Virus record (IMG/VR): IMGVR_UViG_2563366990_000004
Length of the DNA: 46,456 nucleotides
From: a virus
Lineage: Duplodnaviria; Heunggongvirae; Uroviricota; Caudoviricetes
Strand: one strand, 5' to 3'
Made by a program: the position numbers and the translations under genes. The notes beneath the pieces were generated by a model that ran no database searches, had not been told where the DNA came from, and worked only from the letters and a program-made list of their open reading frames with translations. Every line of letters begins with the position of its first letter. Within the stretch, counting starts at the first letter, position 1. Of the stretch, positions 2,057 to 33,703 are shown in pieces.

Positions 2057-4495
2057 TTAAAAATCAGCCTGACTCGGGATCAGTTTTTGCCAGATAGCTG
2101 AAACGTATTTTGCCTGATAACGGGCGTCATCAAGTGCATTATGGCGCTCACCTTCGAATGGAATAGCCGTTCTGGCATCGAAGTCTATGGCTTTCCCCAG
2201 CTCAACGATTGTGCGTACATCGCGATCGTTGTAGTAACGCCACGGGCAGGGGATCCCCTGCCGTTCGTATGAACGGCGCAAAATCGTGTTGTCGAAGTTG
2301 GCTCCATTTCCCCAGACCTGAACAAAAAATTCACCGGAGTTTTCGTCGATAAATTCCCGCAGTTGTAACAGTGCATCATCTAACGGGATTTCATCGGTCA
2401 TAATGGCAGATTGCGCTTCGCGTGATTGCTTAAGCCACCATTTAATGGTGTCCCGATCAATGACTCCGCCAGCAGTTTCCAGATCGATAGTCTTACTAAA
2501 TTCCGGTCCCATATCTCCGGTTTGCGGATCGAAAAATATTGCACCTATTGAGATGATCGGGGCATTAGGATTTTTTCCCATGGTTTCAAGGTCGATCATT
2601 AGATGGTCACACGTCCTGCTGGTGGATGTGATTTCGTGATGACCGTTCACCGCAATTAAGGGATCTGCCGCTTCGCCAGTTTCACTATCGCTGGTGTGAT
2701 GCTGATCGTTACCAGCATTCTCATTGTTCGGATGTTCAGCGCCTTCTATTTCCTCCGGATCATCTTCCTGAACTTCAGCCTGATTTTTTTCATCGAATGT
2801 TTCCTGGTATGTTGCGTCGCCCATCACCGCGCCACAGTCAGGACAGTTGCCGCCACCGCTCTGACCGCAGGCGGTGCAGACTTTTTCCTCTTCCTGTTGC
2901 GCTACTGGTTCGGATTGTTTCGTTTCTGGCTCGTCTTGTAACGCATTTTGGCTGTTTTGTTCTGCTTTCTGGTCGTTCTGTTCCGTTTCTAGCTGGTTCT
3001 GGTTCACAGAATCGCAGGTTTCAATCCCCTTAACCCATTTCGAATCATTCGGGTCGCTAATCCCTTCAACAAACTCACCACGAGAAGCGGCAAGCAATTT
3101 GTCGGCATCTGGTCGACTGATGTCTGCTGCCTCCATAATTTTATTTACTTCTTCAGCGGTAACTTTTACCTGTGACTTGTCATCCAGCGGCTGCGGGTCC
3201 TGATGATGTTCAACTGTATCCGCTGCCATTGTTTCAGCCGTTGCCTGTTCATCTGCCATTGCGCCAGATGGTTGCGGGTTTTCTTCATCATTTTTTTCTT
3301 CTTCTGTTTTGCACTCAGCAGCCAGTCCGTCGTTAATTTCTTCCAGGATATCTTTTTCCGGTGTATGCCGGGCAGCCATGAGCGTTTCAGCTGTGGGATT
3401 CTCGTGATCAGTTTCTGTCAGGTTGGCATTGATATACCCCTGAAGGCGTCCCGGGTAGTGATAAAACTCAGGGTGGGCGCTCCGGATAAGTGCAAAAATA
3501 GCTGCGCGGGAATAGTCCAGGATACCAGGGGTTGCGCGAAGTGCTGCGGACCATTCCCTGAACGGACTTTCTTTTTTCAGGACGATTTCTTTTGCGCGAC
3601 GATAAACGCTCACGGGTATTTCATAAATATTAAAATCCATCGGAAGCGTGGCTGCTGCAGCCTCCACATCCAGAGTATCGAGGGTGTGTACTAAGTCAGG
3701 ATTACGATCGGTTTTATTTCCGCCACCGGCATTTGCACCGGAAGCCGTGCGGGTGATGCGAGAAACACGATTTCCTTTCATCCACTCTTTTGTCAGCAGA
3801 CCTCGATCGGTATAGTCAGCGTCCAGGTATGCTTCGAAAAAAGCAGTCATTAACCCCAGACTGGAATTAACGGGATTAGGGAAAACTTTGTCTGTGTCGC
3901 GTACCAGTTTATGAAGGTCGCGAATCTCCAGCGGGTCGAGCAGCTTTGTGTTGTGGGAAATAGCCAGGGCAGTAACAGCCGGCAGTTCTTCAGCTCGTGC
4001 GATATGTAATGCCTGAAGTTCTTCCCGTGAAACGTGCGTTACCGGTTTTTCGCTGCCATGTTGCGCAAGCCAGCGAATGGGTAGTTCCTGACCGGAAATT
4101 GGCAGGAGCATATTATCCTCAATCTCAGCCATGTCTTCGCCATTGACGTTGGTATTGTCAGTGCTGGCTGGTTTTTCCTGAACTGAGGGGGAAGGCGCTA
4201 TAAATATCATTGTGATGCCATCTTCCCCGCCTTTTTCATAGCGGTTGCAGAATTCAGTATCAAACACGCCTTCCGGTGGAAGGTCATTCACAACGGGGAA
4301 ATGGACGCGGACGGGTTTTTTGAAATCATCAGCGTCGTAGCCTGCCTCGTCCATTGCAACAACGCACCGCGAGATTGCTACAGATAATTTCTTTTCTGTA
4401 CTCCAGTAAAAACCCCCTTTAATCCCAAAGCGTTTTCTGACCTTGTCATTTTTTGCTTCGCAATATAGCGCAAATTCTTCTTTATCAGTGCTCAT
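2057..4495 (-). CDS. Large early-region exonuclease with C-terminal DnaQ-like (DEDDh) 3'-5' exonuclease domain; central acidic low-complexity linker and CxxC…CxxC zinc ribbon
   Basis: 812-aa ORF. C-terminal 180 aa contain IDLETMG … NGANFD … HNALDDA motifs typical of DnaQ/RNase T-like exonucleases. Sits where Rac carries recE; no RecT/Bet-like annealase gene is visible nearby. Confidence 0.7.
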   Translation of the reverse strand: MSTDKEEFALYCEAKNDKVRKRFGIKGGFYWSTEKKLSVAISRCVVAMDEAGYDADDFKKPVRVHFPVVNDLPPEGVFDTEFCNRYEKGGEDGITMIFIAPSPSVQEKPASTDNTNVNGEDMAEIEDNMLLPISGQELPIRWLAQHGSEKPVTHVSREELQALHIARAEELPAVTALAISHNTKLLDPLEIRDLHKLVRDTDKVFPNPVNSSLGLMTAFFEAYLDADYTDRGLLTKEWMKGNRVSRITRTASGANAGGGNKTDRNPDLVHTLDTLDVEAAAATLPMDFNIYEIPVSVYRRAKEIVLKKESPFREWSAALRATPGILDYSRAAIFALIRSAHPEFYHYPGRLQGYINANLTETDHENPTAETLMAARHTPEKDILEEINDGLAAECKTEEEKNDEENPQPSGAMADEQATAETMAADTVEHHQDPQPLDDKSQVKVTAEEVNKIMEAADISRPDADKLLAASRGEFVEGISDPNDSKWVKGIETCDSVNQNQLETEQNDQKAEQNSQNALQDEPETKQSEPVAQQEEEKVCTACGQSGGGNCPDCGAVMGDATYQETFDEKNQAEVQEDDPEEIEGAEHPNNENAGNDQHHTSDSETGEAADPLIAVNGHHEITSTSRTCDHLMIDLETMGKNPNAPIISIGAIFFDPQTGDMGPEFSKTIDLETAGGVIDRDTIKWWLKQSREAQSAIMTDEIPLDDALLQLREFIDENSGEFFVQVWGNGANFDNTILRRSYERQGIPCPWRYYNDRDVRTIVELGKAIDFDARTAIPFEGERHNALDDARYQAKYVSAIWQKLIPSQADF

Positions 4496-30619: not shown

Positions 30620-32208
30620 AACGAACGCCTGTCCTGATTGATGTGAACGGCGTTCCGCTTCGGGAGAGCCTCAGCTACCACGGGGGCGGTGCAGGATTTG
30701 GTGGGCAAATGGCAGAGTGGTTGCCACCCTCGCAGAGTGCCGATGCGGCCCTGCTGCCCGCGTTGCGTCTGGGGAATGCCCGTGCAGATGATCTGGTACG
30801 CAATAACGGGATAGCGGCTAATGCGGTGGCCCTGCATAAGGATCATATTGTCGGGCATATGTTTCTGATCAGCTACCGTCCGAACTGGCGCTGGCTGGGG
30901 ATGCGGGAGACTGCGGCAAAAAGCTTTGTCGATGAGGTGGAGGCGGCCTGGTCGGAATACGCCGAAGGGATGTTTGGCGAGATCGACGTGGAAGGAAAAC
31001 GCACGTTCACGGAATTTATCCGTGAAGGCGTGGGCGTTCATGCGTTTAACGGCGAAATCTTTGTGCAGCCGGTCTGGGATACGGAAACCACGCAGTTATT
31101 CCGCACGCGTTTTAAAGCCGTGAGTCCGAAACGGGTGGACACGCCAGGACACGGTATCGGGAATCGTTTTCTGCGGGCCGGGGTGGAGGTCGATCGATAT
31201 GGGCGTGCCGTTGCGTACCATATCTGTGAGGATGATTTTCCTCGCTCCGGGAGTGGACGATGGGAACGGATCCCGCGTGAACTTCCCACCGGGCGTCCGG
31301 CCATGCTGCATATTTTCGAGCCGGTGGAGGACGGGCAGACCCGTGGGGCCAATCAGTTTTACAGCGTCATGGAACGGCTGAAGATGCTCGATTCCCTGCA
31401 GGCAACACAGCTTCAGTCAGCCATTGTTAAAGCCATGTATGCAGCGACGATTGAAAGTGAACTTGATACCGAAAAGGCCTTTGAATATATCGCGGGGGCA
31501 CCGCAGGGTCAGCAGGATAATCCGCTCATTAATATTCTGGAGAAGTTCTCCAGTTGGTATGACACGAATCACGTGACGCTGGGCGGTGTCAAAATTCCGC
31601 ACCTTTTCCCCGGTGATGATCTGAAACTGCAGACCGCGCAGGATTCAGACAATGGATTTTCTGCGCTTGAACAGGCGCTGCTGCGGTATATCGCCGCCGG
31701 TCTTGGCGTTTCCTACGAACAGTTGTCCCGTGATTACTCGAAGGTCAGTTACTCAAGTGCCCGCGCCTCCGCCAATGAGTCGTGGCGCTATTTTATGGGG
31801 CGGCGAAAATTTATTGCGGCCCGGCTGGCCACGCAGATGTTTTCCTGCTGGCTGGAAGAGGCACTTCTTCGGGGGATTATCCGTCCGCCACGGTCACGTT
31901 TTGATTTTTATCAGGCGCGATCAGCCTGGTCACGGGCAGAGTGGATTGGTGCCGGAAGAATGGCCATTGACGGGCTCAAGGAGGTCCAGGAATCAGTGAT
32001 GCGCATTGAGGCCGGACTGAGCACGTATGAGAAAGAGCTGGCGCTGATGGGTGAGGATTATCAGGACATTTTCCGCCAGCAGGTCAGGGAATCCGCAGAG
32101 CGGGAAAAAGCCGGACTCTCACGTCCGGTGTGGATAGCACAGGCGTATCAGCAGCAGATAGCGGAGAGCCGCAGGCCGGAAGAGGAGACAAGACCACGTG
32201 AGACGTAA
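30616..32208 (+). CDS. B: Portal protein B
   Basis: 530 aa, lambda gpB size and position after W; 4-nt overlap with W. Confidence 0.9.
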   Translation: MKRTPVLIDVNGVPLRESLSYHGGGAGFGGQMAEWLPPSQSADAALLPALRLGNARADDLVRNNGIAANAVALHKDHIVGHMFLISYRPNWRWLGMRETAAKSFVDEVEAAWSEYAEGMFGEIDVEGKRTFTEFIREGVGVHAFNGEIFVQPVWDTETTQLFRTRFKAVSPKRVDTPGHGIGNRFLRAGVEVDRYGRAVAYHICEDDFPRSGSGRWERIPRELPTGRPAMLHIFEPVEDGQTRGANQFYSVMERLKMLDSLQATQLQSAIVKAMYAATIESELDTEKAFEYIAGAPQGQQDNPLINILEKFSSWYDTNHVTLGGVKIPHLFPGDDLKLQTAQDSDNGFSALEQALLRYIAAGLGVSYEQLSRDYSKVSYSSARASANESWRYFMGRRKFIAARLATQMFSCWLEEALLRGIIRPPRSRFDFYQARSAWSRAEWIGAGRMAIDGLKEVQESVMRIEAGLSTYEKELALMGEDYQDIFRQQVRESAEREKAGLSRPVWIAQAYQQQIAESRRPEEETRPRET

Positions 32209-33703
32209 TCTTTCACACATTATTGCCGCAGCATTCAATGAACCGCTGCTTCTGGAGCCCGCCTATGCGCGGGTTTTCTTTTGCGCGCTCGGGCGCGAGA
32301 TGGGGGCAGCAAGTCTTTCGGTACCACAACAGCAGGTGCAGCTTGATGCTCCCGGAATGCTGGCTGAAACGGACGAGTACATGGCCGGAGGTAAACGACC
32401 GGCCCGTGTTTACCGGGTGGTGAACGGTATTGCTGTACTGCCGGTGACCGGCACGCTGGTGCACCGGCTGGGTGGCATGCGGCCATTTTCCGGAATGACA
32501 GGCTATGACGGCATTGTTGCCTGTCTTCAGCAGGCAATGGCGGACACCTCTGTCCGGGGCGTACTGCTGGATATTGACAGTCCGGGCGGGCAGGCCGCCG
32601 GTGCGTTTGACTGCGCTGACATGATTTACCGCCTCCGGCAGCAGAAGCCGGTCTGGGCACTGTGTAATGACACGGCCTGTTCTGCGGCCATGCTGCTGGC
32701 GTCGGCCTGCTCCCGACGGCTGGTTACCCAGACATCCCGTATCGGCTCCATTGGCGTGATGATGGGCCATGTCAGCTATGCCGGTCATCTGGCGCAGGCC
32801 GGGGTGGATATCACGCTGATTTATGCCGGGGCGCATAAGGTGGATGGCAATCAGTTTGAAGCCTTATCGGCAGAGGTGTGTCAGGACATGCAGCAGCGCA
32901 TTGATGCGGCGCACCGGATGTTTGCCGAAAAAGTGGCGATGTATACGGGGCTGTCTGTGGAAGCTGTCACGGGGACAGAGGCTGCCGTTTTTGAAGGTCA
33001 GTCCGGTATTGAGGCCGGGCTGGCGGATGAGTTAATCAATGCGTCGGATGCCATCAGCGTGATGGCTGCGGCGCTGAACACACATGATACAGGAGGCACT
33101 ATGCCGCAATTAACTGCAACGGAAGCCGCCGCGCAGGAGAACCAGCGAGTGATGGGGATCCTGACGTGTCAGGAAGCGAAAGGACGTGAACAGCTTGCCA
33201 CGATGCTGGCAGGACAACAGGGCATGAGCGTTGAACAGGCCCGGGCGATTCTGGCTGCGGCAGCACCACAGCAGCCGGTGGCATCCGCGCAGAGTGAAGC
33301 CGATCGCATTATGGCGTGTGAAGAAGCTAAAGGTCGTGAACAACTGGCGGCAACGCTGGCGGCGATGCCGGAGATGACGGTGGAAAAAGCCCGCCCGATC
33401 CTGGCGGCTTCACCGCAGGCGGATGCCGGACCCTCACTCCGTGATCAGATTATGGCTTTGGATGAGGCAAAAGGGGCTGAGGCGCAGGCTGAAAAACTGG
33501 CGGCGTTTCCCGGAATGACGGTGGAGGCTGCCCGCGACATTCTGTCCTCATCGCCGGATAAAGCAGAACCGGTTTCTGCATCCACAACCGCCATGTTTGA
33601 ACGCATCATGGCGAACCATTCACCGGCAGCCGTGCAGGGTGGCGTGTCACAGACGTCGGCAGACGGTGATGCGGACGTGAAAATGCTCATGGCCATGCCA
33701 TGA
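32198..33703 (+). CDS. C: Prohead protease/minor capsid protein C (S49/ClpP-like) with nested Nu3-like scaffold region
   Basis: N-terminal half aligns with lambda C (…FNEPLLLEPAYARVFF…VVNGIAVLPV.GTLV…GMTGY.GI…LQQA…GVLLDIDSPGG…FDCADMI…KPVWAL.ND…); C-terminal Ala-rich region carries three ~47-50-aa tandem repeats. GTG start. Confidence 0.85.
   Translation: MRRNLSHIIAAAFNEPLLLEPAYARVFFCALGREMGAASLSVPQQQVQLDAPGMLAETDEYMAGGKRPARVYRVVNGIAVLPVTGTLVHRLGGMRPFSGMTGYDGIVACLQQAMADTSVRGVLLDIDSPGGQAAGAFDCADMIYRLRQQKPVWALCNDTACSAAMLLASACSRRLVTQTSRIGSIGVMMGHVSYAGHLAQAGVDITLIYAGAHKVDGNQFEALSAEVCQDMQQRIDAAHRMFAEKVAMYTGLSVEAVTGTEAAVFEGQSGIEAGLADELINASDAISVMAAALNTHDTGGTMPQLTATEAAAQENQRVMGILTCQEAKGREQLATMLAGQQGMSVEQARAILAAAAPQQPVASAQSEADRIMACEEAKGREQLAATLAAMPEMTVEKARPILAASPQADAGPSLRDQIMALDEAKGAEAQAEKLAAFPGMTVEAARDILSSSPDKAEPVSASTTAMFERIMANHSPAAVQGGVSQTSADGDADVKMLMAMP

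Follow-up and report, generated by a model that had tools for sequence, protein, structure and literature searches.

The prohead protease/scaffold gene of a lambdoid prophage carries, three times in tandem, a scaffold module that occurs once in phage lambda. The gene lies in a 46,456-nucleotide stretch of viral DNA (IMG/VR record IMGVR_UViG_2563366990_000004; hereafter, the window) and encodes a 501-aa protein homologous to lambda C, with a putative nested scaffold homologous to lambda Nu3. Profile and alignment tests showed that three segments of this protein are homologous copies of one module, that the module is the conserved signature of lambda-family Nu3-type scaffolds, and that it falls within the sequence common to protease and scaffold. 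Taken as a whole, three tandem copies of this 41–45-residue module, with an inferred binding role, are in our judgement the likely explanation of the feature; its identity and history together we regard as close to certain. The triplication is already known as the "Tri box" variant of phage 21, and it is ancient, common and not specific to the window.

Three homologous units in a putative nested scaffold

A preliminary description of this DNA had reported three tandem repeats at 33140–33600, in the C-terminal part of C. We built a hidden Markov model (HMM) from the three candidate units and the unit of lambda. It gave three full-length, non-overlapping matches in the 501-aa protein, at 77–84 bits each, and exactly one match in lambda C, at aa 357–400, in agreement with that description, which gave the motif as single there. 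Local alignment between units yielded z-scores of 16.3 (units 1 and 2), 10.6 (units 1 and 3) and 16.2 (units 2 and 3), and none of 2000 shuffles attained the observed score. Two independent single-unit PHROG profiles, phrog_8399 (131 positions) and phrog_8940 (201 positions), each matched three stretches. The unit HMM, the shuffling tests (z = 10–16) and the PHROG profiles thus bear out the three repeats, whose reported boundaries were correct within a few bases. Unit 1 is also close to lambda's unit (29/49 identical, z = 20.7).

At the DNA level, units 1 and 2 are about 70% identical over a 97-nt pair at a spacing of 150 nt. Tandem Repeats Finder, run with a minimum score of 30, reported no repeat, the DNA copies having diverged too far, and the repeats were therefore tested at the level of the protein.

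Across the family, the module reads ER.R..I..C.EAKGRE.LA..LA....M.VE.AK.ILAAAP and is followed by a C-terminal tail; here it is present three times, its copies joined by Pro/Ala/Ser linkers. The literal motif of the preliminary description (IM.(C/L)(E/D)EAKG.E…LA..P.MTVE.AR.IL…P) fits units 2 and 3 exactly, and unit 1 is a variant, with IL.CQEAKGRE, MSVE, no Pro and a 3-residue insert shared with lambda. In unit 3 of the phage-21 clade (33470–33484, EAKGAEAQ), Ala and Gln replace the family-conserved Arg and Leu of EAKGRE.LA, whereas Salmonella and other three-unit relatives retain GRE at this position. The tail (FERIMA...) was considered as a degenerate fourth unit and rejected, its local alignment to the units giving z ~0. 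As had been estimated, the protein is about 60 aa longer than lambda C (501 vs 439 aa, +62 aa); this is the net of two additional units and their linkers, which contribute about +100 aa, and a leader between the protease domain and unit 1 that is shorter by about 36 aa.

As the preliminary description had placed them, the repeats lie in the scaffold region, wholly inside an Nu3-like open reading frame (ORF) that starts in frame at ATG 33101, Met302 of the protease fusion, with AGGAG upstream at 5-nt spacing (Table 1). Both phage 21 records, M81255.1 and OL657228.1, annotate a gp6 coding sequence ("scaffolding protein", 200 aa) that starts internally, in frame, behind a ribosome-binding site of its own, and lambda has AGGAGG before codon 309 at the homologous position.

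We compared the two possible internal starts of lambda (locus nt 2333 and 2543) with window positions 33091–33103. No Shine-Dalgarno sequence precedes the RefSeq nu3 start (NC_001416.1; codon 239 of C, 201 aa). AGGAGG lies 4 nt ahead of codon 309, which is homologous in position to the internal start of the window and phage 21. Counted from codon 309, lambda Nu3 has 131 aa (13.4 kDa), against 200 aa (20.7 kDa) from the homologous start here, and equals in length the 131-position PHROG "head scaffolding protein" profile. Because of these three points, the RefSeq coordinates may overstate the length of lambda Nu3. OL657228.1 also annotates two "transcription factor CII binding sites" within the scaffold ORF, at about 33106–33119 and 33340–33353 on the minus strand, the second in unit 2; these are putative pattern matches (ttgynnnnnnttgy).

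Table 1 Features of the protease/scaffold gene in window coordinates (pLDDT, predicted local distance difference test score)
Feature	Residues	Position	Strand	Basis and remarks
Prohead protease/scaffold fusion gene (lambda C, phage 21 gp5 homologue)		32198..33703	+	GTG start; 501-aa ORF
Shine-Dalgarno sequence AGGAG of the nested scaffold ORF		33091..33095	+	Sequence; putative ribosome-binding site annotated at the same place in M81255.1 and OL657228.1
Nested in-frame scaffold ORF (phage 21 gp6, lambda Nu3 homologue)		33101..33703	+	200 aa, 20.7 kDa, isoelectric point 4.6; putative start; coding sequence in both phage 21 records
Unit 1, ENQRVMGILTCQEAKGREQLATMLAGQQGMSVEQARAILAAAAPQ	314-358	33137..33271	+	HMM 76.9 bits; orthologue of lambda's single unit by sequence comparison
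Linker 1 (QPVASAQS)		33272..33295	+	Between HMM matches; pLDDT ~60 or below in the gp6 model
Unit 2, EADRIMACEEAKGREQLAATLAAMPEMTVEKARPILAASPQ	367-407	33296..33418	+	HMM 83.5 bits
Linker 2 (ADAGPS)		33419..33436	+	Between HMM matches; pLDDT ~60 or below
Unit 3, LRDQIMALDEAKGAEAQAEKLAAFPGMTVEAARDILSSSPD	414-454	33437..33559	+	HMM 80.6 bits
C-terminal tail (F..FM..SP..V...LM..P)	455-501	33560..33700	+	Common to the whole family; low pLDDT
Tri1 box		33168-33271		Mapped from M81255.1; in unit 1
Tri box		33308-33418		Mapped from M81255.1; in unit 2
Tri3 box		33449-33562		Mapped from M81255.1; unit 3

The window gene aligns with M81255.1 ("Bacteriophage 21 head gene operon") without gaps over 1506 nt at 93.8% DNA identity. 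That record carries, on gene 6, the repeat_region features "Tri1 box", "Tri box" and "Tri3 box", each noted as "function unknown; putative". Searches of the literature on the phage 21 head genes and on domain mapping of Nu3 turned up no account of the Tri boxes or of what the module does; the evidence for prior knowledge is therefore the GenBank feature table. Phage 21 gp5/gp6 has the same putative nested start and ribosome-binding site and the same three units, and gp5 shares 94% aa identity with the window protein over all 501 residues. The only difference is a patch in unit 3 and the following linker, which reads EAARDILSSSPD here and ESARAVLAAGSG in phage 21. The patch spans 33437–33565 (unit 3 and the start of the tail), and its two helix 3/linker alleles are distributed as follows: EAARDILSSSPD occurs here and in P0176/P0155, with a near variant in P0213, and ESARAVLAAGSG in phage 21 and most prophages. 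Synonymous divergence (dS) from phage 21 is 0.91 in unit 3, compared with 0.10–0.14 in the protease and unit 1–2 segments and 0.21 in the tail. Together with the two alleles, this value suggests that the array has recombined with a more distant relative.

Age, spread and copy number of the units

Nineteen phage records, comprising isolated virions and prophage-derived entries, covered at least 80% of the gene, 18 of them the whole 1506 nt, and each gave one unbroken alignment. By tblastn, at least 80% of the scaffold was covered in 20 phage records; about 91 lambda-, N15-, phi80-, 434- and HK-type records were found at 60–80% identity, and those listed match only one 38-residue unit. Among complete E. 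coli genomes, 1867 of 5426 contain at least 80% of the 603-nt scaffold ORF. Our first homologue search, with the 200-aa scaffold as query, returned mostly fragments, and a full-length query was needed to show length variants. A three-unit profile searched against 1.84 billion representative proteins retrieved 502 proteins at E ≤ 0.001; the best 150 of these comprised 139 with one unit, 7 with two and 4 with three, and included 52 full-length protease fusions (≥380 aa), 51 of which have one unit. By these counts, proteins of the family normally have one copy, and only an enterobacterial clade has several. The triplication is accordingly an expansion relative to the family, as had been supposed, but an ancient rather than a recent one. 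The idea that it is peculiar to this DNA did not survive comparison with relatives: every sequenced phage-21-type relative has the same three copies.

We compared three-unit proteins from E. coli, Salmonella and metagenomes that are 46–65% identical to this scaffold. In every one examined, unit 1 was closest to unit 1 of the other proteins and to lambda's single unit. All unit 1 copies carry a 3-residue insert (MGI-L/I) that is absent from units 2 and 3, and the latter mostly pair with their positional counterparts. These comparisons showed that lambda's single unit has its orthologue in unit 1, and that units 2 and 3 derive from an old tandem duplication common to enterobacterial prophage proteins only 46–65% identical. 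Positional orthology of the units implies that the triplication predates the split of these lineages. In the P0027 lineage, which has four units, units 2–4 are 80–85% alike, which indicates a later extra duplication or gene conversion. Measured against phage 21, the ratio of non-synonymous to synonymous substitution (dN/dS) is 0.12 in units 1–2, 0.17 in unit 3 and 0.14 in the protease domain; substitution analysis thus showed purifying selection on the units like that on the protease domain, at a dN/dS of about 0.12–0.19.

A survey of the 120 closest protein clusters, with junctions read in DNA, revealed several copy-number variants. Two-unit proteins of 451/452 aa (25 clusters) occur in two forms. 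One, at locus L005, carries a unit 1/unit 2 hybrid produced by a 150-nt deletion at the shared octamer CGTGAACA; the other, at locus L007, has cleanly lost unit 2 through a 147-nt deletion at CACCGCAG. A 482-aa variant (66 clusters) lacks helices 2–3 of unit 2 owing to a 57-nt deletion between two CTGGCGGC octamers, and a four-unit variant of 551 aa (2 clusters) has a unit 3/unit 2 hybrid from a 150-nt duplication at ATGAC.G. Junction analysis thus showed that the number of units in E. coli prophages still changes, between 2 and 4, by deletion or duplication at 8–11-nt microhomologies between units. The 57-nt deletion junction was found in 70 complete genomes and was the only one that could be counted; a megablast count of the unit 1/unit 2 hybrid junction was uninformative, this junction being 95–98% identical to normal unit 2.

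Several loci and proteins show further peculiarities. The two-unit gene at L007 (E. coli O157:H7, CP038421.1, 4801–5789) lies in a visibly defective prophage, where the major capsid gene is truncated to 88 aa and runs straight into tail-tube genes. The four-unit gene in LS992828.1 (L004, ~4240–4400) has N at both copies of the ATGAC.G junction, and its assembly may be uncertain; that the four-unit allele is real is supported by another, independent protein of 551 aa (P0096). In P0177 (721 aa) and P0180/P0181 (577 aa), tail-fibre-like sequence is joined to the C gene immediately behind unit 3, and P0094 (657 aa) contains an internal duplication of 156 aa that reaches from the last part of the protease domain into unit 3. 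These four chimeric proteins are probably deletion or duplication scars in prophage remnants.

Predicted structure and candidate roles of the module

AlphaFold2 modelling of the 200-aa scaffold with 13 homologues gave a mean pLDDT of 68 and a predicted template modelling score (pTM) of 0.28. The units were helical at pLDDT 75–80, with linkers and tail at about 60 or below, and gp6 is accordingly predicted to be a string of independent beads on flexible linkers. Unit 1 modelled from an alignment of 51 units reached pLDDT 90.6 and pTM 0.68, a confident prediction, with helices at residues 2–9, 18–25 and 32–41; each unit is predicted to form a compact, autonomous three-helix bundle. A Foldseek search of the PDB with the full 200-aa gp6 model returned no match at E ≤ 0.001, a global search being meaningless for a flexible string of pTM 0.28, and was repeated with the single-unit model. 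The unit profile found only chance matches among PDB sequences, the module being absent from solved structures. A 10/10 match to AKGREALAEK in chain Un of 9hqv was rejected, as this entry is a Toxoplasma mitoribosome.

Two-hybrid work on lambda reported Nu3–E, Nu3–Nu3 (including dimers) and Nu3–C interactions, with the Nu3–E contact unmapped to the module (PMC3224144). From these interactions, and by analogy with nested protease–scaffold pairs, we infer that the units may bind capsid protein and/or portal, a role that we consider possible but far from assured. Under this proposal, each bundle would act as a binding bead that anchors the scaffold to capsid protein and/or portal on the inside of the growing shell, or to further scaffold molecules, and the sequence they have in common would let the same beads tether the protease. 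This would make the phage-21-type scaffold trivalent and that of lambda monovalent. After assembly, the S49 protease would degrade the scaffold, and the fragments would exit the prohead, as described for lambda.

This proposal has a more specific form, which strikes us as rather doubtful, in which the module is a valency element: each copy would independently bind one capsid subunit or the portal, the copy series, generated by microhomology slippage, would tune the number of shell subunits bridged by one scaffold molecule, and the trivalent phage-21 scaffold would take the place of the oligomerisation required of a monovalent one. Nature provides such a series, with 1 (lambda, N15, phi80), 2, ~2.5, 3 (phage 21) and 4 copies, and if the valency reading were true, these would form a ready-made allelic series relating scaffold valency to procapsid assembly fidelity. 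It is unlikely, in our estimate, that the module is instead a self-association domain, with extra copies building a branched network or swapping inter- for intramolecular contacts. The reported Nu3–Nu3 interaction and dimers would fit such a domain, as would a module far better conserved than expected if it tracked diverging capsid proteins, and the conserved C-terminal tail would be available as the capsid-binding element; however, the gp6 model, a single-chain one, shows no confident unit–unit packing (pTM 0.28), and the same two-hybrid study also reports Nu3–E (PMC3224144).

That the extra copies are a largely dispensable spacer, a neutral duplication in which unit 1 alone works and copy number drifts freely, appears very unlikely. 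Close relatives do vary between 2 and 4 copies, the variant without helices 2–3 of unit 2 is as widespread as described above, unit 3 lacks one conserved Arg, and a single unit serves for the T=7 heads of lambda, N15 and phi80. Against neutrality, units 2 and 3 retain positional orthologues and family-conserved residues in proteins 46–65% identical, their dN/dS equals that of the protease domain, all 19 full-coverage phage records align unbroken across the three units, and the prophage of at least one two-unit variant is visibly defective. The reading of the repeats as an artefact of assembly, or as a recent expansion confined to this genome, is refuted and retains next to no probability. We found no support for it, the only suspicious assembly being a different one (LS992828.1). 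The low DNA identity of the copies and the silence of Tandem Repeats Finder make collapse or expansion by an assembler implausible, and the same structure recurs in the 1990s phage 21 record, in the 19 phage records and in the 1867 E. coli genomes.

The finding itself adds little, since the triplication is already in the phage 21 record and in many E. coli prophages. Our additions are the family-wide copy-number survey, the positional orthology, the microhomology polymorphism and the three-helix-bundle prediction, and they leave its classification as known unchanged. The residual value lies in the fact that the Tri boxes were annotated without function and that the unit is the normally single-copy signature of a large scaffold family. 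Viable-looking natural variants with 1 to 4 copies make scaffold valency in lambda-type head assembly testable, an incremental question for specialists.

Gene setting and comparison with known systems

The protease part of the 501-aa protein matches Peptidase_S49 (PF01343) at aa 146–293 (E = 5.2e-34, above the gathering score) and PDB SppA chains at aa 77–289 (E = 5e-16). Ser162 and Lys214 align with Ser166 and Lys218 of lambda C as the predicted catalytic Ser/Lys pair, and identity to lambda C over the protease part is 59%. The scaffold part has no NCBIfam model and no Pfam match at E ≤ 0.1. Upstream lies a lambda-family portal gene (Phage_portal_2, PF05136, E = 2.9e-100), and downstream are homologues of lambda D (HDPD, 1.3e-23) and lambda E (Phage_cap_E, 3.8e-67); the head proteins of the window are 49–62% identical to those of lambda. 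On the strength of the S49 domain and the place between the portal and the D/E homologues, we assign the gene as the lambda C/Nu3 homologue, as the preliminary description had done.

The whole window is a lambdoid E. coli prophage, whose late region matches the induced phages PhiR12/PhiR5 at 92–93% identity over 71–74% of its length. Its gene order is that of a prophage, with early and regulatory genes followed by head and tail genes. The window is also a mosaic: the PhiR12/PhiR5-like late half occupies 22000–46456, and the early half (1–22000) matches other lambdoid phages at only ~86%, over at most 35% of its length.

Lambda C/Nu3 shares with the window gene the order portal, C/Nu3, D, E, the aligned catalytic Ser/Lys residues, a putative internal start preceded by a Shine-Dalgarno sequence, and the conserved unit and tail. 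It differs in carrying one unit after a low-complexity leader of about 48 aa, where the window gene has three units after a 12-aa leader.

Scaffolds of the P22 gp8 type have one two-helix, helix-turn-helix coat-binding domain at the extreme C-terminus and no fused protease. The likeness, by analogy only, is that both are acidic, extended, transient scaffolds with a small helical module close to the C-terminus; here, in contrast, three predicted three-helix modules stand upstream of a further 47-aa tail. Searches of PDB sequences and with Foldseek found neither a sequence nor a fold match between the gp8 C-terminal domain and the window module, which we therefore did not assign to the P22 type. 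As tandem three-helix-bundle binding modules, Staphylococcus protein A domains, RuvA domain III and UBA/CUE domains serve as comparators.

The herpesvirus UL26/UL26.5 genes form a nested protease–scaffold pair, in which in-frame nested translation gives a shared C-terminal region. Their protease belongs to an unrelated family (assemblin, not S49), and we know of no tandem repeat of a shared module in nested pairs of this type. The likeness to the window gene lies in a protease that is taken into the procapsid by the scaffold's own contacts.
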